The notes under the pieces: generated by a model | Database searches by the model: none | Seen by the model: only the letters and a program-made list of their open reading frames with translations | Told to the model about the DNA's origin: nothing | Origin: an uncultured Chloroflexia bacterium | Lineage (GTDB): Bacteria > Chloroflexota > Ktedonobacteria > Ktedonobacterales > JADMIN01 | DNA length: 32,000 nucleotides | Direction: 5' to 3' | Assembly: GCA_963718915.1 (NCBI GenBank) | Contig: CAVRAI010000004.1 | Location: forward strand, 630,001-662,000 | Made by a program: the position numbers and the translations under genes | In this document: piece after piece, positions 16,602 through 31,953 of the stretch | How the letters are laid out: each line of letters starts with the position of its first letter | Position numbering within the stretch: position 1 is the stretch's first letter

Positions 16602-17573
16602 ATGGCTATACAGTTTGGCGTCTTTGTGCCTCAGGGCTGGCGCAGGGATTTGGTCGAGATTGCCGATCCGGTGGAGAAGTATGAGGCGATGACAAGTGTG
16701 GCGAAGGCCGCCGATGCAATTCCCGCCATCGACTCGATCTGGGTCTACGATCATTTCCATACCGTGCCCACGCCCACGATGGAGACGACCTTCGAGTGCT
16801 GGAGCATCACCGCGGCGCTCTCGCGCGATACCAGCCGGGTGAATATTGGCCAGATGGTGACGTGCAACGGCTACCGCCATCCGGCGCTGCTGGCGAAGAT
16901 CGCCTCGACGGTGGACGTGATGAGCCACGGACGACTCTACTGCGGGTTGGGCGCAGGCTGGTACGAGCATGAGTGGCGCGCCTATGGCTTCGGCTTCCCC
17001 GAGACGCGCGACCGCATGCGCATGTTCCGCGAGGCGTGCGAGATCGTGATGAAGATGTGGACTGAGGACTATCCGACGTTCAGCGGTGAGCACTATTCCA
17101 TCGATAAGCCGATCAACGAGCCGAAGGGCGTGCGCAAGCCGCATCCCTCATTCTGGATTGGCGGGAGCGGCGAGCAGGTGACGCTCAAGCTGGTGGCGCG
17201 CTTCGCCGATGCCTGTAACTTCGCGGGTGATCCCGAGACGCTGCGCCGCAAGTATGACATCCTGCGTGGTCACTGCGAGACGGTGGGCCGGGACTTCGAG
17301 AGCATTTCCCGGTCGTCCAACCGCATACTCTTCCCGCTCAAACCCGGCGAGGACCCGCGACAGGCGACCGAGAAGGCGCGGGAGGCCGTCGGCGCGACGT
17401 ATGAGGAGTATCTGAACACGGTTGAGGTCGGCACGCCGGAGCAGCTCATCGAGCGGATTCAGCCAATCGTGGATGCTGGCGTGAACTACCTGATAGCCTA
17501 CCTCCCCGAAGTCGCCTACGACCACGACCGTCTGCACCTCTACGCTGAGGAGATCATCCCGCATATCCGGTAA
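16602..17573 (+). CDS. LLM-class F420-dependent oxidoreductase (luciferase-like)
   Basis: FGVFVPQGW start, WVYDHF, NIGQMVTCNGYRHPALLAKIASTVDVMSHGRLYCGLGAGWYEHEW, FWIGGSGE. AGGAGG upstream. Confidence 0.9.
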   Translation: MAIQFGVFVPQGWRRDLVEIADPVEKYEAMTSVAKAADAIPAIDSIWVYDHFHTVPTPTMETTFECWSITAALSRDTSRVNIGQMVTCNGYRHPALLAKIASTVDVMSHGRLYCGLGAGWYEHEWRAYGFGFPETRDRMRMFREACEIVMKMWTEDYPTFSGEHYSIDKPINEPKGVRKPHPSFWIGGSGEQVTLKLVARFADACNFAGDPETLRRKYDILRGHCETVGRDFESISRSSNRILFPLKPGEDPRQATEKAREAVGATYEEYLNTVEVGTPEQLIERIQPIVDAGVNYLIAYLPEVAYDHDRLHLYAEEIIPHIR

Positions 17574-19318: not shown

Positions 19319-20227
19319 CTAGACCTGCGGACATACATAGTACGTGTTCGCCGGGCTCGTCGCGGGAATCTGGGACAGCATCGGCGGGGCGGAGCAGTAG
19401 TTGCCCGCCCAGCGTCGCGCTATCGGCGCGTTGATGGCTGGTTGCGTGGTCAGACCAGCGGGAAATGTGAGTGACTGCCCATCAACGCCAAACCCCAGTT
19501 GAAAGGTCATGGTGGCAATGCTCGTTGGCGGATGAATACTGAAGCCTATGCCAACATCCTGACCAGGGTGTATCGGCGCGCCGGACGCCAAGGTCTGCGT
19601 CACCGTCGCGGGCACGGTAGCGCTGGCCGTGAATTGAAACGACTCCTCGATATCTGGCGAATAGCCAGAGGCGCACTCGCCGCCGATACTACCCGAGCGA
19701 GCATAGAGTTCCGCGCAGCCATTCAGCACATTCAACTGCCCCATATACGGCGTCAGCGACGTCAACCTGACGCCGAAAGCGTCCAAATGGTGTGTGCTGG
19801 TCGTGGACGTGTTACATATCTCGACGAGAAACTCGACCGGCTGCACCACTGCCCGACTCTCTAACCCGCTCCCAAGGACGAATGCGACGTTATTCTGTGT
19901 GGTAATGGTCAGCGGTTGGGCGGTAGAAAGGCCATCGGGCAGCATATAGTCGGCGTTAAACCCATACAACACTGCGGGTGTGCTGACAGACAGGTCGCCC
20001 ACAGAGAGCGCTCCAGCCGTCGGGCTGCATCGTTGTACACGTGCTATGGCGGTCGGCGACGGATTATCAGCGATTGCCGTTGCGGTCGGCTGCGGCGTTG
20101 CGGTCACGGTGAACGAGGTTGGCGTCGGAGTTGTTGCCGCATTCCCAATACTACCTGTCGCGCAACCAGCGGCCATCACACTAAGTCCAGCCAGTAGCGC
20201 GGCTGTGATCCATCGGCGTCGCAGCAT
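19319..20227 (-). CDS. Hypothetical Cys-containing lipoprotein
   Basis: MLRRRWITAALLAGLSVMAAGC lipobox. Thr/Pro-rich linker followed by an unrecognised domain with several Cys. GAGGGAGA lies 8 nt upstream of ATG 20227; the track start is 20251. Confidence 0.6.
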   Translation of the reverse strand: MLRRRWITAALLAGLSVMAAGCATGSIGNAATTPTPTSFTVTATPQPTATAIADNPSPTAIARVQRCSPTAGALSVGDLSVSTPAVLYGFNADYMLPDGLSTAQPLTITTQNNVAFVLGSGLESRAVVQPVEFLVEICNTSTTSTHHLDAFGVRLTSLTPYMGQLNVLNGCAELYARSGSIGGECASGYSPDIEESFQFTASATVPATVTQTLASGAPIHPGQDVGIGFSIHPPTSIATMTFQLGFGVDGQSLTFPAGLTTQPAINAPIARRWAGNYCSAPPMLSQIPATSPANTYYVCPQV

Positions 20228-20450
20228 CGCATCGTCTCCCTCACATCGCATCCGCGTCTCTCGTCAAAAACCGCATGCCCGTTGCGAGGCCAGTATAGAG
20301 CATCAAGAGGAACTGGGCAATAGAGGCTAATGGGGATCACGCGCACTGTCTATATGGAGGAAGAAAGAGCCGCTCCTGCCCCGCGATCAACACGGACGTG
20401 GCACACACACTAACCCCGCCTGCTGACAAGACAAGACAGGAGCGACTCAC

Positions 20451-20474
20451 AGACTTACAGACTTACAGACTTAC
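20451..20474. repeat. Tandem octamer AGACTTAC x3
   Basis: Read directly. The last unit overlaps the TAA stop (20471..20473) of the binding-protein gene. The upstream GACAAGACAAGACA is also repetitive. Confidence 0.6.
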
Positions 20475-21718
20475 GGCCAGTTCGGCCGTGGATATTCTGG
20501 CGGCTTGAAATTTGGATCGGTCGTCGTTGGATAAATGGGAACCAGGAGTCCGCCCTGCCATTGGAACAGGAACGCCTCGATCACAACATTCTGCCCGGTG
20601 TTGTCGAACTTGACGGGACCCTGGACGCTGGTGAACGTATCCTTGTGAAGTTCCGCGATGAGCCTGGCCTGGTTGAGTGAACCGATCTTGGTGATTGCCT
20701 GCTGAACAACCTGACCCACCGAGTAGGCTTCGGGAACATCAGAGCTGATCGCGCTCATATCGCCCCCATACAGCTTGAGGTAGGCCTTGACCATCGCCTG
20801 ATTCCCTGGTGTTGTCTGCTGCGGGTACCACCCGTTCGGAACCATGATGCCTTCCGCCGAAGTTGCCCCGCCGATGGCATGCAGGAAGTCGTTGCCCTGA
20901 TCGGGGCCTGCTGTGGCCACAATCGCCTTCGGATTATAGTTCTGCTGCTTAAACGCGAGTGCGAACGCCTTGAAATCTTCCAGCAACGTCCCCAACACGA
21001 CGATATCAGCCCTGGCGTTCACGAGCTTCTGCGCAACGGGCGTGAAGTTCGTTGTGTCTGACGAATACACCGTATACGAAGCCGTCTGGATGCCAGCCTG
21101 TTCAAGCAGTTGCCTGGCGAGGTCAATCTGAGGCTGTGTGAACGGATCGTCCTCGGTGGCATACGCCGCTGTCTGTGGCCGATCACTGGGGGGAAGCGAG
21201 AGAATCAGTTGTGTAAAGCTAATCAGGTTGTTCGCAACGGGCAAGGAGACATCAAAGACATTATTGAGTCCCTGGGTAAATACAGAAGGGCCGCCGCCCG
21301 CGCCTTCGACGAACGCGTAGCCGTAGTGATTCACAGCAATCGCGGCGGGCTTGGTCAGTTTGGATGAGAATGGTCCAAAGAGCAGATCGCAATGGTCAAC
21401 GTTGATAAGCCGCTGATAGTTCGTCACGACCTGCGTATCGCTGCTGCCATCATCCAGAATGTCGAGTGTTACTTTGCGCCCCAGCAATCCACCACTGGCA
21501 TTGACGCTGTTGGCCCAGAGCTGGTAGCCCTGCTTAAAAGCCGTGCCATCAGCCGCAAAGTCGCCAGTGAGCGAGAGTGAGACGCCGATTTTCACTGGAG
21601 GACTGTCAACCGTATGAGCCGGGGCGATACCACATGCCGTTACCGTCATCACGGCGACACAGGCCAGGATGACACAACTACAGGCTCGATGAAACGCTGC
21701 GCGCGAACGTCCACCCAC
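20471..21718 (-). CDS. ABC transporter substrate-binding lipoprotein, branched-chain amino acid (LivJ/Peripla_BP_6) type
   Basis: VKIGVSLSLTGDFAADGTAFKQGYQLWANSVNASGGLLGRKVTLDILDDGSDT. Lipobox MTVTAC. In-frame GTG 21718..21716 lies 6 nt after GAAGGGAGA. Alternatives are ATG 21763 or the longest ORF at 21883, which overlaps the E2 gene. Confidence 0.85.
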   Translation of the reverse strand: MGGRSRAAFHRACSCVILACVAVMTVTACGIAPAHTVDSPPVKIGVSLSLTGDFAADGTAFKQGYQLWANSVNASGGLLGRKVTLDILDDGSSDTQVVTNYQRLINVDHCDLLFGPFSSKLTKPAAIAVNHYGYAFVEGAGGGPSVFTQGLNNVFDVSLPVANNLISFTQLILSLPPSDRPQTAAYATEDDPFTQPQIDLARQLLEQAGIQTASYTVYSSDTTNFTPVAQKLVNARADIVVLGTLLEDFKAFALAFKQQNYNPKAIVATAGPDQGNDFLHAIGGATSAEGIMVPNGWYPQQTTPGNQAMVKAYLKLYGGDMSAISSDVPEAYSVGQVVQQAITKIGSLNQARLIAELHKDTFTSVQGPVKFDNTGQNVVIEAFLFQWQGGLLVPIYPTTTDPNFKPPEYPRPNWP

Positions 21719-21795
21719 GTCCGTTCTCCCTTCACGCCCATGACACGCCTGATTGAGCGGCATCACACACGCCGCACCTGAAACATTCGACAAGG

Positions 21796-23022
21796 CTACA
21801 GACCCGACGGGTCGGTCATCAGTTCCGCCACCGTCGCGAGAAATTGCGCGCCCCGCGCGCCATCTACAACACGATGATCGCATGAGAGACTGAGCGTGAT
21901 GGTCGGGCGTACCGCTGGCTGGCCATCCACTGGAATCACCCGGTCAACGAGCGCCCCAACCGCCAGAATCGCCGCCTGTGGGCTGTTGATGATCGCCGTG
22001 AATGCATCCACGCCGTACATCCCCAGATTGCTGATCGTAAATGTGCCGTCCTGAAGGTCGGAGGGCCTCAGTTTTCCCGCCTGCGCGCGCGCGACCATCT
22101 CCGCCCGATGGCGTGCGATGCCACTGAGGCTCAGGTCGTCGGCGTGCGGGATGACCGGCGCCACCAGGCCATCTGGCGTCGCGACGGCAAGCGCGATATT
22201 CACCTCGTCGTGCGTGATGATGGCGCCGTTCCGCCAGGATGCGTTGAGGCGAGGATGCAGCCGCAGCGCAGTCGCCACCACTTTGACCAGTAAATCAGTG
22301 TATGTCAGCTTCTCGGTTGCGCGCTTCTCCGCAAGTGCGAACCAGTGCTTAAACGCGGTGGCATCCAGCTCGCGCATGAGAAAGAAGTGGGGCGTGGTCA
22401 CCCAGCTCTGGGTCGTGCGTTCCGCCATCAGTCGCCAGATGGCGCTCAAGGACTGCTCGTTCGCAGTCGCGGAGTCGGCTGGCTCTATCGTCTGTGTCAG
22501 CGCGGCGCTTCCAGCCGCCAGCACATCCGCGGCCAGCACAGCGCCGCCCGGCCCGGTTCCGCGTATCACTGACAGATCCACTCCGCGCACCGCCGCGATA
22601 CGCCGCGCTTTGGGAGAGGCCTGGCGACGTCCATTGGCGCTCTGTGTCCCGGATGGGGCGGACGCGACTATGCTGGGGATTGATCGTGCCGGTTGTGCTG
22701 GTTGTGGGCGCGCATTCCCCAACGCTGCTATAGCGGCATGGGCCAACGTGGGGGCGGACTGATCCGCCGCGGCTTCCGCCTCCTCCGGCGAGAGGATAAC
22801 AGCGATCACCCGCGCCACTGGCACCTCGTCGCCGACGTTCGCCGCCACTCGTGACAGGATGCCCGTCGCGGGCGCCTCCAGGTCCACCGCCGCCTTATCT
22901 GTCTCGATCACCACCAGCGGCTCGCCAGCGGTCACAGATTGGCCCTCGGATTTGAGCCACTCGACGATCTTACCGGTGTCCTGGGCCATCCCCAGCGCGG
23001 GCAAGATAACATCTGTCGCCAT
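21796..23022 (-). CDS. Dihydrolipoamide acyltransferase (E2) of a 2-oxoacid dehydrogenase complex
   Basis: Lipoyl domain with VIETDKA, subunit-binding domain SPKARRIAAVRGVDLSVIRGTGPGG, catalytic SCDHRVVDGA. Confidence 0.92.
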   Translation of the reverse strand: MATDVILPALGMAQDTGKIVEWLKSEGQSVTAGEPLVVIETDKAAVDLEAPATGILSRVAANVGDEVPVARVIAVILSPEEAEAAADQSAPTLAHAAIAALGNARPQPAQPARSIPSIVASAPSGTQSANGRRQASPKARRIAAVRGVDLSVIRGTGPGGAVLAADVLAAGSAALTQTIEPADSATANEQSLSAIWRLMAERTTQSWVTTPHFFLMRELDATAFKHWFALAEKRATEKLTYTDLLVKVVATALRLHPRLNASWRNGAIITHDEVNIALAVATPDGLVAPVIPHADDLSLSGIARHRAEMVARAQAGKLRPSDLQDGTFTISNLGMYGVDAFTAIINSPQAAILAVGALVDRVIPVDGQPAVRPTITLSLSCDHRVVDGARGAQFLATVAELMTDPSGL

Positions 23023-23048
23023 GCGCCTGATCTCCCGTAACCCTAATC

Positions 23049-24395
23049 TTATGGACGCTCCGCCGCGCTGTGCGCTATCGCGCCGCGCCGGTGGCCGTCA
23101 GCCTTGACATTCAGATGGGACTGAACCTCGCGCTTTGTAGCAAGCTGCCCATTGACCGTGTAGTAATGGGTGCCAGCCACGAGCAGCTCTTCGGCGGGGA
23201 AGCGCGTGATGACCTCGCAGCCATCGCTGGTGACCACAAGCTGCTCTTCGATGCGGGCAGCGGTCCAGCCATCCGCGGCAGGCCAGAAGGTCTCCAGCGC
23301 GAAGACCATCCCTTCTTCGATCACCTCGGGATGATCCAGCGAGACCAATCGGCTGAAGATAGGCTTTTCCCAGATTGAGAGGCCGACACCGTGACCATAT
23401 TGGAGCGCGAAGGCGGCCTCCTCGTCGGGGAAACCAAATTCCTGCGCCTTCGGCCACAGCTTCACCACATCCGCCGTCGTCACCCCCGGCTTGATGATGT
23501 TGATGGCGGCGTCCAGAATCTCACGGCACTTTTTATACGCATCCACCATCGCCTGCGAGGCGCTGCCGATCGCGAAGGTGCGGTAGTAGCAGGTGCGATA
23601 CCCGTTGTAGCTATGCAGGATGTCGAAGTAGGCCGGGTCGCCTGGGCGGAGCGCGCGATCGCTGAAGACGTGCGGATGCGGGCTGCAGCGCTCACCAGAG
23701 ATGGCGTTCACCCCTTCGACATGTTCCGAGCCCATATCATAGAGCGACTTGCTGACCACGCCCACACACTCGTTCTCACGAACACCCGGCTTCATGAACC
23801 GATACAGGTCGTCATAGGCGGCGTCCACCATCATACAGGCCGTATTGAGGAGCGTGATCTCATCGACCGTCTTGATGAGGCGCGCCTGCTGCATCAGTTG
23901 CTGGCCGTCCACTACCTTGATGCCCTCAGCCTGGAGCGCGAAGAGGACAGGAAGCTCGATGGCGTCCACCCCGAGTGGCTCACCGAGCAGGCCGCGCTCC
24001 TCCAGCTCCACGCGAATCTTGCGGGCCACCTCTTCGGCGCGCCCGGCGGCGGGGAGCATCGCGCCGCGCTGGGTCGAGATGCCAGCACGCGAGCGCTCCT
24101 CGCCCAGCCAGGGACAGTAGAGCTTGTGGTGTCGCGCCGCCGAACCAAAGTCCCAAAGGATCGGATCGTCGTCCTGCGCCAGCAGCGTAAAGCGCGCGAG
24201 CTTGTCCATTGCCCACGTGCCGATGTGGGTAGCGGTGATATAGCGAATGTTGGTCATATCGAAGCAGAGGAGTGCGCCCAGTTCTGATTCTTTCAGAAGC
24301 CGCTTGATGCGGGCGAGGCGCTGCGTGCGCAGCCGCTCAAAGTCTACGCGCTCCTCCCAGTCCACGCCCATTGTGCCGTATGTCTTGAGTGCCAT
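23049..24395 (-). CDS. M24 family (creatinase/Xaa-Pro peptidase/DddP-like) hydrolase
   Basis: Pita-bread C-terminal domain: FDILHSYNGYRTCYYRTF, YGHGVGLSIWEKP, FALETFW, RIEEQLVVT. N-terminal LLCFDMTNIRYIT block. AAGGAG lies 10 nt upstream of ATG 24395; the track start is 24443. Confidence 0.85.
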   Translation of the reverse strand: MALKTYGTMGVDWEERVDFERLRTQRLARIKRLLKESELGALLCFDMTNIRYITATHIGTWAMDKLARFTLLAQDDDPILWDFGSAARHHKLYCPWLGEERSRAGISTQRGAMLPAAGRAEEVARKIRVELEERGLLGEPLGVDAIELPVLFALQAEGIKVVDGQQLMQQARLIKTVDEITLLNTACMMVDAAYDDLYRFMKPGVRENECVGVVSKSLYDMGSEHVEGVNAISGERCSPHPHVFSDRALRPGDPAYFDILHSYNGYRTCYYRTFAIGSASQAMVDAYKKCREILDAAINIIKPGVTTADVVKLWPKAQEFGFPDEEAAFALQYGHGVGLSIWEKPIFSRLVSLDHPEVIEEGMVFALETFWPAADGWTAARIEEQLVVTSDGCEVITRFPAEELLVAGTHYYTVNGQLATKREVQSHLNVKADGHRRGAIAHSAAERP

Positions 24396-24443
24396 ATCAT
24401 CCTGCTCCTTTGGTCTGGCTCCAGACGTTTTTGCCAGCGGCAA

Positions 24444-25469
24444 TTACACACGCCCACAGAGGGTCTTCGCCAGCTCGACGACCGTGGAGGGAGTTGGAAC
24501 CGTTTGGTCTTCCAACACGGGAGAGAAAGGTATGGGAACGTCCATGGCCCCCAGCCGTTTGACCGGGGCATCGAGATCATAGAAGGCGCCTTCAGCGATC
24601 ACCGCGGCCATCTCGGCTGTCACCCCATAACTCTCGTAGCCCTCGTCGATGACGATTGCGCGGCTGGTCTTCCTGGCAGACGCGATCAGCGTATCTCTGT
24701 CCAGGGGAACCATCGTGCGGGGGTCAATCACCTCGGCGCTGACGCCAAGCTGTTCCAGCGTATCGGCGGCGGCGAGGGCAACCTGCACCATGCTGCTCGT
24801 CGCGACGAGTGTGATATCCGTCCCAACGCGCTTGATGTCGGCGACACCGAAAGGAATGGTGTACTCCTCCTCAGGCACAGGGCCTTTGAGCGCGTACATC
24901 ATCTTATCCTCAAAGATGACCACCGGGCTATCGTCACGGATGGCGGTCTTGAGCAGACCCTTGGCGTCGTACGGAGTCGATGGAAGGGCAACTTTGAGAC
25001 CGGGAATGTGACTGACCCAGGCGTGCAGGCTCTGGCTGTGCTGCGCTGCGCTCCGGCGGGTGGCTCCGAGTGTTGTGCGAACGACGAGCGGCGCCTTGAG
25101 CTTGCCGCCGGACATGTAGTGAATCTTGGCCGCCTGGTTGGCGAGCTGATCCATAATCAATCCAATGAAATCGCCGAACATGATGTCTACGACGGGACGC
25201 ATTCCCGTCATAGCCGCGCCGACGCCGATACCGGTGATACCAACCTCCGAGATTGGCGAGTCAATGATGCGCCGCGGGCCGAATTCCTCCACCAGCCCGG
25301 AGAGTACCTTGAACGGCGTGCCAGCTTCCGCGACATCCTCGCCCATAATGTATACAGTCGCGTCGCGGCGAAGCTCCTCGGCGAGCGCCTCGCGGATAGC
25401 CTGTGCGAGTGTCAGCTCGCGAACCCCGGCGGACTCTGTCTGGTTGATGATCGTGCTAGGCGTAGACAT
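24444..25469 (-). CDS. 2-oxoacid dehydrogenase E1 component beta subunit
   Basis: LTLAQAIREALAEELRRDATVYIMGEDV, IDSPISE, transketolase C-terminal-like domain. ATG 25469 overlaps the end of the E1 alpha gene by 14 nt. Confidence 0.92.
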   Translation of the reverse strand: MSTPSTIINQTESAGVRELTLAQAIREALAEELRRDATVYIMGEDVAEAGTPFKVLSGLVEEFGPRRIIDSPISEVGITGIGVGAAMTGMRPVVDIMFGDFIGLIMDQLANQAAKIHYMSGGKLKAPLVVRTTLGATRRSAAQHSQSLHAWVSHIPGLKVALPSTPYDAKGLLKTAIRDDSPVVIFEDKMMYALKGPVPEEEYTIPFGVADIKRVGTDITLVATSSMVQVALAAADTLEQLGVSAEVIDPRTMVPLDRDTLIASARKTSRAIVIDEGYESYGVTAEMAAVIAEGAFYDLDAPVKRLGAMDVPIPFSPVLEDQTVPTPSTVVELAKTLCGRV

Positions 25470-26469
25470 CTTGATCAACCTCACTGGGATCTGGGAAAGG
25501 CGCGTTGAGCGCGAAATCTACTGCCGCCTCGATCTCGGCGCGCGCCTCCCGTGTCATCCGGTCAAGCGCATCAGCCTCGGCAATACCCTGCTCCGTCAGC
25601 CACTGGCCGTGCAGAGTGATCGGGTCGCGCTGGGTCTTCCAGTGTTCCTCCTCTTCTTTGGAGCGGTAGTACGTGCGCTGGATATCGCCAACGTGGTGGC
25701 CATAGTAGCGATAGGTGTTACAGAGGAGGAATGACGGCCCCTCGCCACGACGCGCTCGCTCGACCATACCACATGTGGCGGCATAGACGGCGCGAACATC
25801 CTGGCCATCGACCACGTCGGAAGGAATGCCGAACGCCTGTGGTCGCGCGGTCAACTCGCCCGCGGTGGTCTCGCTGTAATGCGTGTACTCGTTATACAGG
25901 TTGTTTTCGCACACGTAGATGACGGGCAGTTTCCACAGCGAGGCCATGTTCATGACCTCATACACGATGCCCTGCCCAAGCGCGCCATCGCCAAAGAAAC
26001 AGACGGCAACCTGGTCCGCGCCACGCATCTTGCTTGAGAATGCCGCGCCCGTCGCGATGCCCGCGCTGCCGCCGACGATAGCGTTGGCTCCCAGATTGCC
26101 CGTATCCTGGTCGGCAATGTGCATGGAGCCGCCCTTGCCCTTGCAATAGCCAGCCTCTTTGCCGAGCAGTTCGGCGAACATGCGATCAACGGAAGCGCCT
26201 TTCGCCAGACAGTGACCGTGACCGCGGTGCGTGCTGGTGATGTAGTCATCGCGTCGCAACGCCGCGCAGACGCCCACCGCAACCGCCTCCTCGCCAGAGT
26301 ACAGGTGCGCAAGACCAGGCATGCGCGCGGTCTTGTAGAGGTCGTTGACCTGTTCCTCGAAGAGACGAATCCTGATCATTTGCCGGTACATATCAAGCCA
26401 GAGCTCGCCCTCAGTGGCGTCTGACTGGCTGGCATTCTGCGCCTGTCGCGCGGTTTTCGCCTGTGCCAT
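25456..26469 (-). CDS. Thiamine-diphosphate-dependent 2-oxoacid dehydrogenase E1 component alpha subunit (acetoin/pyruvate dehydrogenase-like)
   Basis: TPP motif GDGALGQGIVYEVMNMASLWKLPVIYVCENN, plus YRYYGHH. GAGGAGAGG upstream of ATG 26469. Confidence 0.92.
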   Translation of the reverse strand: MAQAKTARQAQNASQSDATEGELWLDMYRQMIRIRLFEEQVNDLYKTARMPGLAHLYSGEEAVAVGVCAALRRDDYITSTHRGHGHCLAKGASVDRMFAELLGKEAGYCKGKGGSMHIADQDTGNLGANAIVGGSAGIATGAAFSSKMRGADQVAVCFFGDGALGQGIVYEVMNMASLWKLPVIYVCENNLYNEYTHYSETTAGELTARPQAFGIPSDVVDGQDVRAVYAATCGMVERARRGEGPSFLLCNTYRYYGHHVGDIQRTYYRSKEEEEHWKTQRDPITLHGQWLTEQGIAEADALDRMTREARAEIEAAVDFALNAPFPDPSEVDQDVYA

Positions 26470-26505
26470 GTGGGCCTCTCCTCTACTTTCCAGAGCATGC
26501 GCCCG

Positions 26506-27246
26506 CTATGGGAGATTCACATCCGTTGATGTGTTGCCAAGTGACGTGTTGCCGAGTATTGCTTGCCGGGTATCTGCGCGCACCTGCTTTAAATGCGCGC
26601 GCATACTGTCCCGGGCAGCCTCAGAATCTTTCTTCACGATCGCATTCAGTACGCGCTTGTGATGCATTTGCCCACGCTGAGGTCCACCAGGCACGGCAAA
26701 GATCAGTTTGCGCTGATCGCTGAGAAGATCGACAATCGAATCCATGAGCGCCAATATCAAGGGATTGCCAGAACCGCGCGCCACCGCGCGATGAAATTCG
26801 TTGTCGGCGGCAATGAAGGCGTCAGCATCATCGAGCGCATGCTCCATCGCCTCGTACGCCGCCCGCATTGCCGCGATATGCTCGCCCTCCGCACGCCCCG
26901 CCGCCAAAGCCGCCATCTCTGGTTCGAGGATTTCGCGCACCTCGGTGAGATGCTCCGTGACGTGTCGGCTGCCAATGCGCATCATCAAGTGGAGCGAGTG
27001 GCGCACAGCCTGCGATGTACCATCAATCACCATCGTTCCCCGGCCGGGCCGCATATCAACCAGGCCCCGCTGTGCGAGCGTCTTCAAGGCCTCGCGCACG
27101 GCGGTGCGGCTTGCGCCGAATTGCTCCCCCAGCTCGCGTTCCGAGCCAAGGTAGTCGCCATGACGCAACTCACCCGAGAGAATGCGCCGCTCGATCTGAG
27201 CCGCGATCTGCTCGAATACCCTGCTGCGCTCGATCCGGTCGTACAT
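26506..27246 (-). CDS. GntR family (FadR/FCD subfamily) transcriptional regulator
   Basis: wHTH LGSERELGEQFGASRTAVREALKTLAQRGLV plus a helical FCD-type C-terminal domain. GAGGA lies 5-6 nt upstream of ATG 27246; the track start is 27282. Confidence 0.9.
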   Translation of the reverse strand: MYDRIERSRVFEQIAAQIERRILSGELRHGDYLGSERELGEQFGASRTAVREALKTLAQRGLVDMRPGRGTMVIDGTSQAVRHSLHLMMRIGSRHVTEHLTEVREILEPEMAALAAGRAEGEHIAAMRAAYEAMEHALDDADAFIAADNEFHRAVARGSGNPLILALMDSIVDLLSDQRKLIFAVPGGPQRGQMHHKRVLNAIVKKDSEAARDSMRAHLKQVRADTRQAILGNTSLGNTSTDVNLP

Positions 27247-27285
27247 GCATTCCTCACTGCCAGCTTTGCCACGTCGTCCCAAACT

Positions 27286-27322
27286 GGTATGACAATCATA
27301 CCGCAGGACAAAAAGTTGTCAA
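27286..27322 (-). promoter_or_regulatory. Candidate operon promoter with a GntR-type palindromic operator over the -10
   Basis: Minus strand: TTGACA (27322..27317), 16 nt, TATGAT (27300..27295). Perfect inverted repeat GGTATGA-caa-TCATACC (27286..27302) fits the GntR GT-n-AC style and overlaps the -10. Lies 40 nt upstream of the gntR ATG. Confidence 0.55.
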
Positions 27323-27357
27323 GCGTCAGACTCATCAGCTGTGATGCGCAATGTTTG

Positions 27358-28354
27358 TTACACATGAGTTGGCAGGTTGGCGCGTGCGGCCTGATACCAC
27401 CGCGAATCGCAGTATTCTTCGGGCTGTCCCAATCGTATGCCAGTGGGGCCGTACGTCCGGCGCAGCGCAATAACCTGACGCAGACCCTGCTCGTCGAGCG
27501 CGGCATCTCTTCCGTAGCCTGTCGTAGGTAAAACAAACGACGCATACACTCGTGCAACTAGATCGGGCGCTATGCCAAGTGATGACTCTGAGCGCATGAG
27601 CGCCTGGGCCGACTCGGAATTCGCGGGATCATCAAGCCAGCGTAGCGCTTGCAGGATGGCAGTGATATACCGCGTCACCATCTCTGGATGCGCGTTCATC
27701 CATTGGCGCACACCGGCAGTCGAACCAGACGCATAGGCGGGATATGCTACGGACGAAGACGCGAGTTGAGCGCATCCACGCTCGGCGGCGCGCTGATCAA
27801 ACGGCGCATAGAGAACCGTGGCCGCGATAGATCCCCGCCAACAGCGCATCGCAACGTGCATGTGTCGCGCCAGCCACGGCGAACGAATAGTCGCGCTCCA
27901 GCGTCAACCCCTGACGCTGGAGCAAGTCGCGTAATACCAGAGCAAAGCCGGAGGTGGGATTGTCTACGCCAAGGGTCGTGCCAAGCAGATCGTTGATGCC
28001 AGCCGCGCCGGTCCGAGCGTAGACACTCAGCGGGCCGACACTGCCGCCCAGCACCATCGCAATTTCTGGCGCGGTGGTAGACTCCACCCCAAAAGCGGCG
28101 GGCTGCGTCGCGAAATTGATCACATTGTCTGGAGCCGTCTGGATGAGGTCAAACTCACCCCGCGCCAGACCGGCAAGTTGAGCAGCTGACCCAGCCGTAA
28201 ATGTCAGGTCGATGACGAGTCCACGTGCGGCGAAGTAGCCCTCACGTATGGCGACATACAGCGGAAGATTCTGCAACCCTTTGAACGAGTTGATACGCAG
28301 TCTGCTGTTCGATGCTCTCTGATCCACGATGCTGCTCACGATCCGACGGGCCAC
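27358..28354 (-). pseudogene. NMT1/THI5-like (NitT/TauT-type) substrate-binding protein, split by a +1 frameshift
   Basis: ORFs 27797..28354 and 27358..27861 are the N- and C-halves of one protein. Removing one C from the CCCC run 27833..27836 gives a continuous ...THARCDALLAGSIAATVLYAPFDQ.... The GTG start at 28354 overlaps the upstream TAG. Confidence 0.7.
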
Positions 28355-29241
28355 TACGGCTCGATGCCAGCCATCTTTGCAAGCACTTTATAGACGATGA
28401 AGAAATCATGCTCGGCCAGCCCCATCGCGCGCGCAGCCGTCAGAAACTCGTTGCTTAAGGCGACTGTTGGGAGCGGGACATCAAACTGCCGCCCCATATC
28501 CAGAGCCAGCAGCATGTCCTTCTGCATCATGTTGACATTGAACCAGGCTTCAGCTGGTTCATTAAGAATGAAAGGAGTGCGGTACTTGAGAGAAGGCGAG
28601 GCAATCACGCTATCGAGAAGAACTTTCAATGCCGTCGCGCGAGGAATACCGCCCTTTTCCGCGAGGAGTAACGCCTCGGAGAAAGCCATGATTTGCACCT
28701 GCAAATTGAGGTTTACGGCGATCTTCATCAGCACAGCCTGACCATTGGCGCCCACGTAGTTGACGGTGGGTGCAATCGCCTCTAGCACAGGCCTGACGCG
28801 CTCGAGGGTCTCTCGGTCGCCGCCGACCATCATCGATAATTGGCCCTGCTCCAGGGTAATTGGGCTGCCCGAGACAGGCGTATCGAGCATGCGTGCGCCA
28901 CGCGCCGCCACCTGATCCGCCAACTCGCGCGACTTCGCCGGGCTGACCGTGCTCATATCGATGTAGACCTTGCCTGGCCGTAGCCCAGCCAGCACGCCAT
29001 TCGGCCCCTGCACGACCGCCTCAAGCGCGTCGGTATTGGTGACCATAGTGAAGATGATCTCAGCCGATTCCGCCACCTCGCGCGGCGTATTGGCCCAGCG
29101 CATCCCGGCAGCCAGCAGCCATTGCACTTTGGATGGCGTGCGGTTGAAACCAACGACCTCGTATCCGGCATCCAGGAGCCGCTTCGTGACGCGGCCACCC
29201 ATCGCGCCAAGACCGATGAAGCCAAGAGCGACACGAGCCAT
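28354..29241 (-). CDS. NAD(P)-dependent oxidoreductase, 3-hydroxyisobutyrate dehydrogenase (HIBADH) family
   Basis: Rossmann motif LGFIGLGAMGGRV, plus DMSTVSP and DTPVSGS motifs. GGAGG lies 8 nt upstream of ATG 29241. Confidence 0.9.
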   Translation of the reverse strand: MARVALGFIGLGAMGGRVTKRLLDAGYEVVGFNRTPSKVQWLLAAGMRWANTPREVAESAEIIFTMVTNTDALEAVVQGPNGVLAGLRPGKVYIDMSTVSPAKSRELADQVAARGARMLDTPVSGSPITLEQGQLSMMVGGDRETLERVRPVLEAIAPTVNYVGANGQAVLMKIAVNLNLQVQIMAFSEALLLAEKGGIPRATALKVLLDSVIASPSLKYRTPFILNEPAEAWFNVNMMQKDMLLALDMGRQFDVPLPTVALSNEFLTAARAMGLAEHDFFIVYKVLAKMAGIEP

Positions 29242-29339
29242 ATCCAGACCTCCAGGTGATTACGTGAACGACAGCGTGGCCCGCCATCGTCACTGTTTCC
29301 GTTTCCTCGCTCATGAGGCCCACAACGTGGCAAGGGTCG

Positions 29340-30392
29340 TCATGGCGTGGCATCGCCACCGTTGCGCGCTGCTTGCGCCGCCTTCGCAAACGGAGCAGGA
29401 CCCGTGCTCTGGCGAACGATCAACTCAACGGACATCACCAGTGGCTCCGGCGCCGTCGTTCCACTGGTAATCTGCGCAAGCAGGCGCTCTGCCGCTGCCC
29501 GTCCCATTTCGTGTAGCGGTAGATGGACAGTCGTCAGCAAACGAGTTGTGCCGAGAACCGTTGAGATATCGTTGAAACCGACAATTGAGATATCGCCCGG
29601 CGTCTGAAGGCCCGCCTCTTCTATCGCACGCAGAGCGCCAACCGCGGCCAGATCGTTGACCGCGAAGATCGCTGTTGGCGGCTGGGCCAAAGCGAGGAGT
29701 TGCCGTGTCGCCTCATAGCCACCCGGTGCGCGAAAGCTACCATGCACGATGAGATCGGGATCAACAGCCAGGTTGTGCCGCTCGAGTGTATCTCGATATC
29801 CGCGGGCGCGTGTGTAGCCCGTCGACATTTCATCTGAACCCGCAATGTGGGCGATACGGCGATGACCCAGTTCAATGAGATGCTCCACAGCAGCGATCGC
29901 TCCAGCGTAGTCATCGGGCACGACAGTATTTCCGGCAATGGGATCGGTGTGGCGGTTGACCATCACGAAGGGGAACTCACCCGCCGTCAGCGCATTGATT
30001 ATGGGATCCTCTCGTCGCGCCGTCGCGATGAGTAATCCATCCACCTGCCGTCCGCGCAACATGGCGATGCTACTTTGCTCGCGCTCCAATTCGTCGTCCG
30101 TATTGGCCATAATCACGCTGTATCCCCTGGCGGCCATCGCATCCTCTATGCCCCGGAACAGAATGGCAAAGAACGGGTTGGCAATGTCAGGGATTACTGT
30201 GCCAACGACAAAACTACGCCTTGTCCGGAGGGAGCGTGCCAGATGATTCGGCTGATAACCCTGCTCGCGAGCCAGCGCCAGAATGCGCGCGCGTACTTCC
30301 TCGCTCACCCGTTGCTGCGGATCGTCATTGAGCACCCGCGCAACTGTCGAGGGATGTACTCCAGCCAACCTGGCAAGGTCTTTCAAGGTCAT
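29340..30392 (-). CDS. LacI family transcriptional regulator
   Basis: HTH MTLKDLARLAGVHPSTVARVLN, YQPNHLARSLR hinge, periplasmic-binding-protein-like core. ATG 30392 is preferred to 30410. Confidence 0.9.
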   Translation of the reverse strand: MTLKDLARLAGVHPSTVARVLNDDPQQRVSEEVRARILALAREQGYQPNHLARSLRTRRSFVVGTVIPDIANPFFAILFRGIEDAMAARGYSVIMANTDDELEREQSSIAMLRGRQVDGLLIATARREDPIINALTAGEFPFVMVNRHTDPIAGNTVVPDDYAGAIAAVEHLIELGHRRIAHIAGSDEMSTGYTRARGYRDTLERHNLAVDPDLIVHGSFRAPGGYEATRQLLALAQPPTAIFAVNDLAAVGALRAIEEAGLQTPGDISIVGFNDISTVLGTTRLLTTVHLPLHEMGRAAAERLLAQITSGTTAPEPLVMSVELIVRQSTGPAPFAKAAQAARNGGDATP

Positions 30393-30458
30393 TTTTAGGC
30401 GGCCTTGCAATTGCTATTGGCCTGTCGCTCGCTCACCAGTACAGTCCTCCCTCGTTTT

Positions 30459-30474
30459 GAACAAACGGTTGTTC
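30459..30474. promoter_or_regulatory. LacI-type operator, site A
   Basis: GAACAAACGGTTGTTC is a 16-bp palindrome (14/16 symmetric) centred on CG. It matches the general LacI/GalR pattern AAnCGnTT. Lies 67 nt upstream of the lacI-family ATG. Confidence 0.5.
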
Positions 30475-30674
30475 TGACAACAGTAGCATCAAATATAGGG
30501 CCTGTCAATTATCGTCGGGCAGCCACTTCAGGCATAGTCATGATGTGATCGTGGCGACATCTCCCTCTGGTTCCCACATCAAGAATACCACCAGACGGCG
30601 ATTCCGGCACAGACTGCGGGTATGCCGTTGCGCAACGACCCGTGTTTCGTGCCACGTGTCAACTGGGCGGCGCA

Positions 30675-30703
30675 TTGACATGCTCAGCGGGTAGTGCTAC
30701 AGT
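30675..30703 (+). promoter_or_regulatory. Candidate sigma70-type promoter for the alpha/beta hydrolase gene
   Basis: TTGACA (30675..30680), 17 nt, TACAGT (30698..30703). Confidence 0.5.
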
Positions 30704-30706
30704 TTC

Positions 30707-30743
30707 GTGCAATCGTTTGTTCATCACAAACAAACGATTGTTC
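30707..30743. promoter_or_regulatory. LacI-type operators, sites B and C
   Basis: Site B is GTGCAATCGTTTGTTC (30707..30722) and site C is AAACAAACGATTGTTC (30728..30743). Both share the site A consensus. Centres are 21 bp apart, and site B starts 4 nt after the -10. Together they also form a 12-bp-arm inverted repeat CAATCGTTTGTT/AACAAACGATTG. Confidence 0.55.
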
Positions 30744-30852
30744 AGCGTGATGAGCGCCGACCTGGATACGCAACAACCGATGGACGAGTTGCTGAAGCAT
30801 GCTCGAATGAATTGAGCGGCAAGACCACGCTCCTGGCGTGCAGGGAGGAAAT

Positions 30853-31953
30853 ATGACCACGACTGACTCTAACGCACATGAGAGCACAAGCTATTCCCAG
30901 CAAGACGAGCGCGTTCGCATTGCCGTCAGTCACTGGGCGCCGCGATTTGTCGCGAACGGTGTGGATCTGAGCGACTTCAACGCCACCCTGGCGCGTATCC
31001 AGACCTGGAGCCAGTGGTTGACGGAGTGGGCAACGACGGCGCGTGGCTATGAAGACCTCGCCCAGACCGCGGAATCCCGTGGGTTCGCCGTGACAGCTGC
31101 CGAGGCCTGGCGTCGCGCCGCACTCTGCTGGCACTTTGGCAAGTTCGTCTTCATGGAGGATCCCGATCTCGCACGAACGGCCCAGCAACGGCTGGTAGAA
31201 GAGTATCAGAAAGGGATGTGGGCGCTGGAACCGCCTGCGACGCGCGTCGAGATTCCCTACGGCGCCGTTCGTATGGCCGCGTTACTCCGTCTGCCAGCAG
31301 GGATAGACCTGCCGCCCGTGGTCATCATGCTCCCAGGGCTAGACTCAACCAAAGAGGAAATCCAGACGACCGCCGATTTCTTTTTACAGCGCGGGCTGGC
31401 GACGCTAGCGGTAGACGGACCTGGGCAGGGTGAGACCGAGGAACTGCTGCGCATCGAGCCAGCGTATGAGCACGCCGCTCAGACTGTGATGGACTGGATC
31501 AAGACACGCGACGATCTCGACCATAATCGTGTCGGTGTCTTTGGCGTCAGCCTCGGCGGCTACTACGCAATACGAACAGCGGCGTATGTCCCTGGCATCA
31601 AGGCAGCGGTTGATCTGGCGGGACTCTACTCGATGGCTGAACACTGGGATGAACGCCCACCCATGACACGCGCCACCTTTAGCAAGCGTTCCGGCGCGGC
31701 GGACGAGGCGGAGGCGCGGCAACACGCGCACGCGATGTCTCTCGTCGGCGTCACCCAGCATGTGCGCTGTCCACTGCTCATCGTGCATGGTACTCGCGAT
31801 ACCATTGTTCTCTTCAGCGACGCGGAGCGTATCCACGCCGAAGTACCAGGTTCTGAACTGGCCGCGTTCGAGGGGAGCAATCACGGTTGTACTGACCGTG
31901 TCTTCGCGTCGCGCGCTCTGATGGCCGACTGGTTAGCCCAGCATCTCGGCTAG
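30853..31953 (+). CDS. Alpha/beta hydrolase (FrsA / dihydropseudooxynicotine-hydrolase-like esterase family)
   Basis: Nucleophile elbow GVSLGG, PGLDSTKEE and VDGPGQGE blocks, C-terminal HG. GGGAGGAAAT lies immediately upstream of ATG 30853; the track start is 30838. Confidence 0.85.
   Translation: MTTTDSNAHESTSYSQQDERVRIAVSHWAPRFVANGVDLSDFNATLARIQTWSQWLTEWATTARGYEDLAQTAESRGFAVTAAEAWRRAALCWHFGKFVFMEDPDLARTAQQRLVEEYQKGMWALEPPATRVEIPYGAVRMAALLRLPAGIDLPPVVIMLPGLDSTKEEIQTTADFFLQRGLATLAVDGPGQGETEELLRIEPAYEHAAQTVMDWIKTRDDLDHNRVGVFGVSLGGYYAIRTAAYVPGIKAAVDLAGLYSMAEHWDERPPMTRATFSKRSGAADEAEARQHAHAMSLVGVTQHVRCPLLIVHGTRDTIVLFSDAERIHAEVPGSELAAFEGSNHGCTDRVFASRALMADWLAQHLG

Follow-up and report, generated by a model that had tools for sequence, protein, structure and literature searches.

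The locus described here lies in a 32,000-nucleotide stretch of DNA (the window) from an uncultured Chloroflexota bacterium of the order Ktedonobacterales (GenBank assembly GCA_963718915.1, contig CAVRAI010000004.1, positions 630,001–662,000). Six co-directional open reading frames (ORFs) on the minus strand fill positions 20471–27282 of the window and encode, in the order of reading, a GntR-family regulator, the E1α and E1β subunits of a thiamine pyrophosphate (TPP)-dependent dehydrogenase, a protein of the M24 family, an E2 dihydrolipoyl acyltransferase and a solute-binding protein (Table 1). A first-pass annotation, made without database searches, had described these genes as a tightly packed, co-directional set of six; all were found at the positions that it gave, and the Pfam and NCBIfam matches agree with its assignments. 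Its account of the operon content was incomplete in one respect: a gene for a HIBADH-family β-hydroxyacid dehydrogenase, 1.1 kb upstream of the operon and outside its coordinates, had been left out.

Table 1. Features of the operon and of the DNA upstream of it. Coordinates are positions in the 32,000-nucleotide window; domain calls are from Pfam and NCBIfam profile searches.
Feature	Position	Strand	Remarks
HAAT/LivJ-type solute-binding protein, probably a lipoprotein	20471..21883	-	Likely start 21763; Peripla_BP_6 175 bits
E2 dihydrolipoyl acyltransferase	21796..23022	-	Biotin_lipoyl, E3_binding (42 bits) and 2-oxoacid_dh domains
Cys-variant M24 enzyme	23049..24443 (ORF)	-	Peptidase_M24 127 bits; real start ATG 24395
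E1β	24444..25484	-	Transket_pyr and Transketolase_C domains
E1α, TPP-dependent	25456..26469	-	E1_dh 270 bits; GDG-x27-NN TPP motif at residue 160
GntR-family regulator with FCD domain	26506..27282	-	Likely ATG 27246; Pfam GntR 74 bits, FCD 111 bits
Perfect 17-bp palindrome GGTATGA-N3-TCATACC, candidate GntR operator	27286..27302	.	Covers the -10 box
Promoter-like site TTGACA-16-TATGAT	27295..27322	-	11/12 consensus positions
NMT1/SsuA-like binding-protein gene, split in two frames	27358..28354	-	Two overlapping ORFs, weak NMT1 matches
HIBADH-family β-hydroxyacid dehydrogenase	28354..29241	-	NAD_binding_2 177 bits, NAD_binding_11 75 bits
LacI-family regulator	29340..30410	-	LacI and Peripla_BP_1/3 domains; found with the module in 10 of 92 loci
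Alpha/beta C-C hydrolase that opens the divergent uptake operon	30838..31953	+	Full-length PDB match 2JBW, E 1e-50

The position of the M24 gene between those of E1β and E2 had been singled out as unusual in the first-pass annotation, which treated the gene as part of the operon and named its absence from close relatives as a sign of recent insertion. Orthologues of the M24 protein (80–97% identity) are present in 28 of 40 related Ktedonobacterales genomes, and every locus in these 28 genomes that is long enough to show it has the order E1α–E1β–M24–E2. A wider scan with one genome per species, in which an alignment of five sequences served as the query, returned at least 555 related loci; the gene-order results given here for other lineages are those for the best 80 of these (68–87% identical). 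They come from Chloroflexota, Acidobacteriota, Actinomycetota, Dormibacterota, Rokubacteria and Deinococcota and from metagenome-assembled genomes labelled Deltaproteobacteria and Spirochaetales, and 51 of the 80 keep the same order. An order shared by 28 related genomes and by 51 loci of other phyla goes far beyond what chance would give, and the M24 gene is an integral, conserved member of the operon rather than a recent insertion.

The composition of the module can be read from the 92 loci in which co-occurrence was counted: M24 is found in 88, E1α and the HIBADH-like gene in 73 each, E1β in 67, E2 in 61 and GntR in 40, followed by an alpha/beta hydrolase (32), a LivJ-type binding protein accompanied by permeases (26) and a succinic-semialdehyde dehydrogenase (SSADH)-like aldehyde dehydrogenase (23). 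In most loci the HIBADH-like gene directly precedes that of E1α, and the gene at 28354–29241 is thus part of the conserved module. Median identities to the window proteins in other phyla are 76% for E1β, 74% for M24, 71% for E1α, 60% for the HIBADH-like protein, 54% for GntR and 48% for E2. Within the Chloroflexota the M24 gene is patchily distributed (37 of 301 sampled genomes at E ≤ 1e-120, a tally that includes one unpublished genome, G174, which enters into no other result given here), which fits an accessory function. Apparent fusions of M24 with the HIBADH C-terminal domain, with a short-chain dehydrogenase/reductase (SDR) or with an XRE domain were set aside as single sequences that may be gene-calling errors.

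In the M24 protein the positions Asp274, Cys285, His351, Glu384 and Glu399 are invariant in all 90 orthologues examined, and Cys285 takes the place of the second metal-binding Asp of other M24 enzymes; the Cys is invariant also in relatives down to 34% identity. The AlphaFold model (pLDDT of 83) has the dimethylsulfoniopropionate lyase DddP as its top Foldseek match (23% identity, TM scores of 0.73–0.77), with prolidases, creatinases and DoeA close behind. The protein was set against creatinase, DoeA, DddP and prolidase by curated-model scores as well as by fold rank. An identity as DddP was rejected (NF043017, 135.8 versus a cut-off of 600), the second Asp being replaced by Cys285 and Asp377 of DddP falling in an alignment gap. 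Ectoine hydrolase (DoeA/EutD; TIGR02993, 61.5 versus 613; NF038259, 72.4 versus 575) was likewise rejected, as was an M24B prolidase or Xaa-Pro peptidase, for which the active site reads D-C-H-E-E instead of Asp, Asp, His, Glu, Glu and PepQ scores 74 versus 630; aminopeptidase models also lie far under their cut-offs. Creatinase is metal-free. The fold matches the creatinase structures 7YTO and 1KP0 with TM scores of about 0.65–0.75, the Pfam Creatinase_N domain is not detected by sequence, and four metal ligands are retained. As judged from its sequence, the protein is a distinct, uncharacterized M24 subfamily with a predicted active site that is intact but altered. The earlier description of it as DddP-like is apt for the fold only: one metal ligand and the favoured catalytic base of DddP are not kept. 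Searches of the literature brought up no paper that assigns a function to this Cys-bearing family or to the operon, and no described pathway of this kind, in keeping with the statement in the first-pass annotation that none was recognized.

The E1 and E2 proteins have the features expected of a 2-oxoacid or acyloin dehydrogenase complex, comprising the TPP motif in the E1 pair and, in E2, the lipoyl-lysine (TDKA, Lys43), the subunit-binding domain and the catalytic DHRxxDG motif (DHRVVDG at residue 382). The window indeed holds no lipoamide dehydrogenase (E3), as had been pointed out; one that passes its cut-off (TIGR01350, 520 bits versus 408.8) is encoded on another contig (C16:6028–7407). 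Since E3 can be supplied in trans, its absence from the operon is ordinary. The genome contains at least four E1αβ/E2 clusters together with a 2-oxoglutarate-type E1. The window E1α falls short of the pyruvate dehydrogenase (PDH) equivalog TIGR03182 (349.7 versus a cut-off of 393.85), whereas its paralogue at C3:43.5k passes it (428.8), and the window E2 is also under its equivalog cut-off. In a tree of 44 E1α sequences with SH-aLRT support, the canonical M24-linked proteins, including that from a Phaeobacter plasmid, form one clade (support of 100) apart from the PDH clade. A second clade holds the M24-linked proteins of Streptomyces and Solirubrobacterales and a third the fused E1αβ proteins; the Haloferax protein lies elsewhere. 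The M24 gene is therefore joined to at least three further E1 lineages (those of the Streptomyces-type loci, the fused E1αβ genes and Haloferax), which argues for functional coupling over mere common descent. Taken together, the score and the tree show that the cluster is an accessory complex separate from the true PDH of the genome, in line with the dedicated catabolic route that the first-pass annotation had suggested. In the family searches the E2 catalytic domain of the housekeeping PDH cluster (C3:46286–46973) appears as two adjacent frames, as does an E3-like gene at C7:494660–496038; either could be a frameshift or an assembly error.

With refined starts, the intergenic distances in the operon range from about −14 to 48 nucleotides. 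The start of the M24 gene is preceded by AAGGAG and gives a product of 448 residues, the length of its database homologues, and the likely start of the binding-protein gene is 32 nucleotides past the E2 stop codon. Terminator-like sites within the operon are no more frequent than in shuffled sequence. A promoter had been placed in the interval 27286–27322, and the near-consensus site at 27322–27295 was found there; it is the only strong promoter-like site on the minus strand within 20200–30900. The palindrome occurs as a single exact copy in the 5.45-Mb genome, and its core (with at most one mismatch) stands immediately before gntR in nine related Chloroflexota loci and, in one Acidoferrales locus, at a distance of about 130 bp upstream. 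Its position over the −10 box, its unique copy and the recurrence of its core support an autoregulated operon. The regulator has the N-terminal GntR helix–turn–helix and C-terminal FCD domain of the FadR/FCD subfamily; its closest NCBIfam models (NanR, LldR, GlcC and PdhR) all score far under their cut-offs, and an identity as PdhR was rejected (95.9 versus 330). An Rfam scan of the window gave two tRNA matches only, both away from the operon.

The HIBADH-like protein passes no equivalog, scoring 229.8 (cut-off 340.75) for tartronate semialdehyde reductase and 169.7 (cut-off 291.6) for HIBADH. Its closest relatives in the PDB are 3PEF, 3PDU, 1VPD and 3CKY, which we take to be enzymes of succinic semialdehyde/γ-hydroxybutyrate, tartronate semialdehyde and 2-(hydroxymethyl)glutarate. 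The NMT1/SsuA-like gene is translationally coupled to the HIBADH-like gene. It is in a single frame in two relatives (L042 and L043), so its split here is put down to a frameshift or a homopolymer assembly error; the intact copy scores 41 bits against the SsuA_fam cut-off of 163.5.

Uptake genes lie beyond the end of the window. The alpha/beta hydrolase matches 2JBW, the 2,6-dihydroxy-pseudo-oxynicotine hydrolase that acts as the C-C hydrolase of nicotine catabolism, and it opens a divergent, LacI-controlled operon whose further genes lie past the window end (L126:2043–10189). These encode a CrtI-like FAD oxidoreductase, a second Peripla_BP_6 binding protein, the transport proteins LivH (split), LivM, LivG and LivF, and a second, prolidase-like M24 protein that has a Creatinase_N domain. 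The statement that no permease or ATPase genes accompany the binding protein holds within the window but not for the genome, where livH, livM, livG and livF are found 4–8 kb past the window end (C4:665–669k) beside the second binding protein. The apparently orphan state of the first binding protein is thus an effect of the window edge. In relatives, LivHMGF-type permease and ATPase genes directly follow the binding-protein gene. The binding protein itself has a signal-like N-terminal stretch that contains Cys, and its closest PDB relatives are amino-acid binders (E of 1e-15). It has the Peripla_BP_6 fold and cognate LivHMGF genes of a HAAT (LivJ-type) system; the LivJ model scores 74 versus a cut-off of 477. 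The divergent operon may be the upper half of the same pathway.

Some smaller features of the locus were also recorded. The livH gene (L126:5482–6423, equivalent to C4:665482–666423) carries an in-frame stop that leaves ORFs of 119 and 192 residues, and with the split NMT1/SsuA-like gene it makes two broken transport genes at one locus. Directly past the stop codon of the first binding-protein gene, at 20441–20470, there is a short tandem array GTCTGTAA GTCTGTAA GTCTGTGA. The downstream ORF at 19319–20251 (310 residues) has no Pfam or NCBIfam match and has a 70% identical counterpart at the same position in a congener (L043). An F420-dependent LLM-class oxidoreductase is encoded at 16602–17573 (TIGR03560, 279 bits versus a cut-off of 231), and in several loci its homologues are neighbours of the module; in a Dormibacterota locus (L078), for instance, one follows E2 directly.

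The partners of the module differ between lineages. Most Acidobacteria loci consist of just GntR, HIBADH, E1, M24, E2, aldehyde dehydrogenase and outer-membrane receptor genes; the additions to the set found here are an SSADH-like aldehyde dehydrogenase (665 bits versus a cut-off of 730), a TonB-type receptor and, in some cases, DctA. Streptomyces-type clusters comprise an XRE/cupin regulator, M24, E1α, E1β, a deaminase-type amidohydrolase, a bicupin, an SDR and a DoeB2-like M20 amidohydrolase, and Streptomyces YIM 121038 has LacI, binding protein, HIBADH, M24, SSADH, fused E1αβ, E2, flavin reductase and LLM oxidoreductase. In a Rokubacteria locus HIBADH and M24 are preceded by RidA, which adjoins M24 or HIBADH in three lineages. 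Amino-acid-type uptake is represented across the clusters by three kinds of system: HAAT ABC importers, DctA and an SNF symporter.

The contexts of more distant relatives (35–58% identical) were read on plasmids. Roseobacter plasmids (Phaeobacter, Tritonibacter and Marinovum) carry M24 (55%), E1α, E1β and a split E2 with an SSADH-like aldehyde dehydrogenase between its halves, the Phaeobacter version also including lpdA; facing this cluster are a sugar-type ABC importer, two acetoin-reductase-like SDRs, a HIBADH-like gene and a ThuA-domain gene. None of these plasmids comes from the Phaeobacter inhibens strain that has public mutant-fitness data. On plasmid pHM500 of Haloferax mediterranei a 35% identical M24 homologue lies beside an E1αβ pair, with an SSADH-like aldehyde dehydrogenase gene (5 kb on), an aminotransferase gene and a sodium symporter gene all within 8 kb. 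The M24 and HIBADH proteins encoded on plasmids of two sulfonamide-degrading Paenarthrobacter strains are 68% identical to those of the window. Plasmid unnamed1 of Paenarthrobacter sp. R1 (L134) has the arrangement RidA–M24–HIBADH–SDR–lpdA, with M24–HIBADH 2–6 kb from the flavin reductase gene sulR and a gene of the acyl-CoA dehydrogenase family, and plasmid unnamed5 of P. ureafaciens SD-1 (L127/L133) has a fuller set that includes a fused E1 and E2. The literature places the sulfonamide-degradation (sad) cluster on a plasmid of strain R1.

On balance we favour the interpretation that the operon is a substrate-specific catabolic module, and not part of central metabolism, in which cleavage of a C-N (or C-S) bond is followed by oxidation of a hydroxy acid and by TPP/lipoate-dependent cleavage to acyl-CoA. 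The amino-acid-type ABC system would import a small carboxylate-bearing compound, probably containing nitrogen. The Cys-bearing M24 protein, acting as a metal-dependent hydrolase or lyase and not as a peptidase, would cleave a C-N bond (less likely a C-S bond) in this compound or in a close derivative, and the HIBADH-like dehydrogenase would interconvert the resulting hydroxy acid with its oxo or semialdehyde form. E1αβ and E2, with E3 supplied in trans, would then cleave a 2-oxo acid or an acyloin oxidatively to give an acyl-CoA. In the relatives that have an SSADH-like aldehyde dehydrogenase, an acid-aldehyde co-product would also be formed and then oxidized. The GntR regulator would repress its own operon until a carboxylate intermediate binds to the FCD domain. 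The recurrent partners (the HIBADH-like protein, the SSADH-like aldehyde dehydrogenase, the TPP/lipoate complex, RidA and the amino-acid-type importers) fit this single scheme. The proposal of the first-pass annotation, in which the M24 enzyme would come first and would hydrolyse an amidino or peptidyl compound, stays a suggestion. Pantothenate, homoserine/canavanine and Rut-type pyrimidine routes were considered on their chemistry alone and found no specific support.

Several observations weigh against a substrate-specific scheme of this form. The order of the steps is our inference from gene families alone. There is no aldehyde dehydrogenase gene in the operon of this genome, the nearest SSADH-like gene being unlinked and its product 51% identical. 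In three loci (L098, L054 and L089) M24 and HIBADH occur without E1 or E2 within 10 kb, so that the complex is not obligatory for the function of M24. In the roseobacter relatives the sugar-type importer and the acetoin-reductase-like SDRs replace the amino-acid importer, which implies either that the class of substrate differs between lineages or that the substrate is not amino-acid-like. Finally, the invariant Asp-to-Cys replacement in an otherwise intact M24 site raises the question of whether Cys285 is a metal ligand or a nucleophile.

Some of the same contexts could also be accounted for if the module were the lower pathway for products of ring fission. Lineage-specific upper enzymes would then open an aromatic, N-heterocyclic or reduced polyphenol ring, and M24, HIBADH, E1/E2 and the aldehyde dehydrogenase would yield acyl-CoA and a succinate-type acid from a shared aliphatic intermediate. 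The adjacent divergent operon, which starts with the close homologue of the nicotine-catabolism hydrolase and encodes an FAD oxidoreductase, points this way, as do molybdenum hydroxylases in six loci, the bicupins, VOC proteins, amidohydrolases, flavin reductases and LLM oxidoreductases that adjoin the module in Actinobacteria, and the proximity of M24–HIBADH to sulR and the acyl-CoA-dehydrogenase-family gene in Paenarthrobacter R1. We nevertheless consider this explanation unlikely, in that none of the upper enzymes is conserved across phyla and most Acidobacteria loci lack them. The known ring-opening enzyme for dihydrophloroglucinol, moreover, is described as an isatin-hydrolase-like cyclase and not as an M24 protein. 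A distinctly less probable alternative is an amidino or ureido route, in which the Cys-bearing M24 protein would be a creatinase-like amidinohydrolase acting on a guanidino or ureido acid with release of urea or carbamate, and with E1/E2 decarboxylating the matching 2-oxo acid (for example of the keto-arginine type) and semialdehyde enzymes finishing the chain. Urease, urea carboxylase and urea transporters are not among the recurrent genes of the 92 loci, the four metal ligands are invariant here whereas creatinase is metal-free, the DoeA models score far under their cut-offs and the roseobacter context resembles the catabolism of a sugar or diol. What such a route would explain are the fold common to creatinase and DoeA, the amino-acid-type importers, aminotransferase and SSADH-like aldehyde dehydrogenases of the homologous clusters, the amine-oxidase-family flavoprotein in the adjacent operon, the recurrence beside M24 of RidA-family proteins, which act in imine hydrolysis, and the DoeB2-like M20 and deaminase-type amidohydrolases of the Streptomyces clusters.

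That DddP is the top match in both sequence and fold raises the possibility of C-S cleavage, by which a sulfonium or sulfonate group would be eliminated from a 3-substituted propionate or lactate to provide E1/E2 with a 2-oxo acid, and the HIBADH-like and SSADH-like enzymes would fill the roles of sulfolactaldehyde reductase and dehydrogenase. The HIBADH-like protein does match the sulfolactaldehyde reductase model and structure 6SM7, the aldehyde dehydrogenase matches SafD, and in this genus a binding-protein gene with weak similarity to SsuA is coupled to the HIBADH gene. However, Asp377 of DddP has no counterpart and its Tyr366 aligns with Phe, the LLM proteins of the window and of L078 are of the F420 type (TIGR03560) and not of the SsuD type, no sulfite exporter or sulfite oxidase is among the recurrent neighbours, and the SsuA score is far under its cut-off; C-S cleavage of this kind is thus very unlikely. 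Just as little can be said for a non-catalytic M24 subunit that scaffolds or regulates the E1/E2 complex, which we regard as highly improbable: none of the five active-site positions, Cys285 among them, varies in the 90 orthologues and the site seems intact, and some genomes have M24 with HIBADH and an ABC importer while E1/E2 are not nearby. Such a pseudoenzyme would be in line with the conservation of M24, which equals that of E1β and is far above that of E2, with the placement of its gene between theirs and with its joining to several independent E1 lineages. Least credible of all is a housekeeping PDH into which an unrelated peptidase gene has been inserted. PDH models are the top NCBIfam matches for E1α, E1β and E2, and PdhR is among the matches of the regulator, but this explanation is already contradicted by the sub-threshold scores of E1α and E2, by the C3:43.5k E1α that passes and lies in a separate clade from that of the window, by the retention of the M24 gene in place across phyla and by the occurrence of the module in few of the sampled Chloroflexota genomes.

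If the module is indeed a dedicated catabolic one, its interest extends beyond this genome. Lipoate-dependent dehydrogenase complexes belong to the textbook enzymes, and the substrates known for them are few; here the same unusual partner is kept across soil Chloroflexota, Acidobacteriota, Actinomycetota and Dormibacterota, marine roseobacter plasmids and, more distantly, haloarchaea. With at least 555 related loci, the wide spread of the module points to a natural substrate that is abundant and has a breakdown route missing from pathway maps. We think it somewhat probable that the Cys-bearing M24 protein represents a new class of enzyme, in which a cleavage other than that of a peptidase is tied mechanistically to a β-hydroxyacid dehydrogenase and a dedicated TPP/lipoate complex. 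Together these would make up an undescribed catabolic pathway, found in at least eight bacterial lineages, including on plasmids of roseobacters, and distantly in haloarchaea, by which a common natural compound is broken down. Knowledge of the substrate would give an annotation to thousands of genes that at present carry the labels 'Xaa-Pro peptidase' and 'pyruvate dehydrogenase', and might also explain the orphan E1 pairs of haloarchaea.

Four known systems are closest to the module. DddP (4S00, 4RZY and 4B28) is the top sequence match to the M24 protein (E of about 1e-27 over residues 34–421); the two share the two-domain creatinase/prolidase-type architecture, and of the metal ligands the first Asp, the His and the two Glu are aligned. 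They differ in that the second metal-binding Asp is Cys285 here, that Tyr366 of DddP aligns with Phe345 and that the gap in the M24 protein takes in Asp377, which the paper on the structure of DddP (PMC4108388) favours as its catalytic base and which is mutated in PDB entry 4S01. The partners of the present module (E1/E2 and HIBADH) are also not those of dimethylsulfoniopropionate catabolism.

Acetoin dehydrogenase (AcoA/AcoB/AcoC/AcoL) and the PDH and branched-chain 2-oxoacid dehydrogenase complexes with heterotetrameric E1 have in common with the complex an E1αβ with a TPP motif, an E2 with lipoyl, E3-binding and catalytic domains and a dependence on E3. The pointers to the acetoin system itself are indirect and come from the homologous clusters. 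Aldehyde dehydrogenase genes lie inside those of roseobacters, Streptomyces YIM 121038 and Haloferax, lpdA lies inside those of roseobacter and Paenarthrobacter plasmids and acetoin-reductase-like SDRs accompany the roseobacter set, as expected for the conversion of an acyloin to an acyl-CoA and an aldehyde. In contrast to these systems, M24 and the HIBADH-like dehydrogenase are integral here, and E1α is under the PDH cut-off in a clade of its own.

Ectoine is degraded by the M24 hydrolase DoeA, the deacetylase DoeB or DoeB2, the aminotransferase DoeD and the semialdehyde dehydrogenase DoeC. Around the module there are an M24 protein with a fold similar to DoeA (TM of about 0.7), an SSADH-like aldehyde dehydrogenase, an aminotransferase (Haloferax) and a DoeB2-like M20 protein (Streptomyces). 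The Doe pathway, however, has no E1/E2 and no HIBADH, and the Cys ligand is specific to the present M24 family. For the haloarchaeal orphan E1 pairs (oadhAB2 and oadhAB3 of Haloferax), a review lists no identified substrate in H. volcanii, pyruvate and α-ketoglutarate having been excluded (PMC8305020). The M24 homologue of H. mediterranei is a distant relative and its E1α belongs to another E1 lineage, but its position beside an E1αβ pair, with an SSADH-like aldehyde dehydrogenase close by, resembles the arrangement described here.

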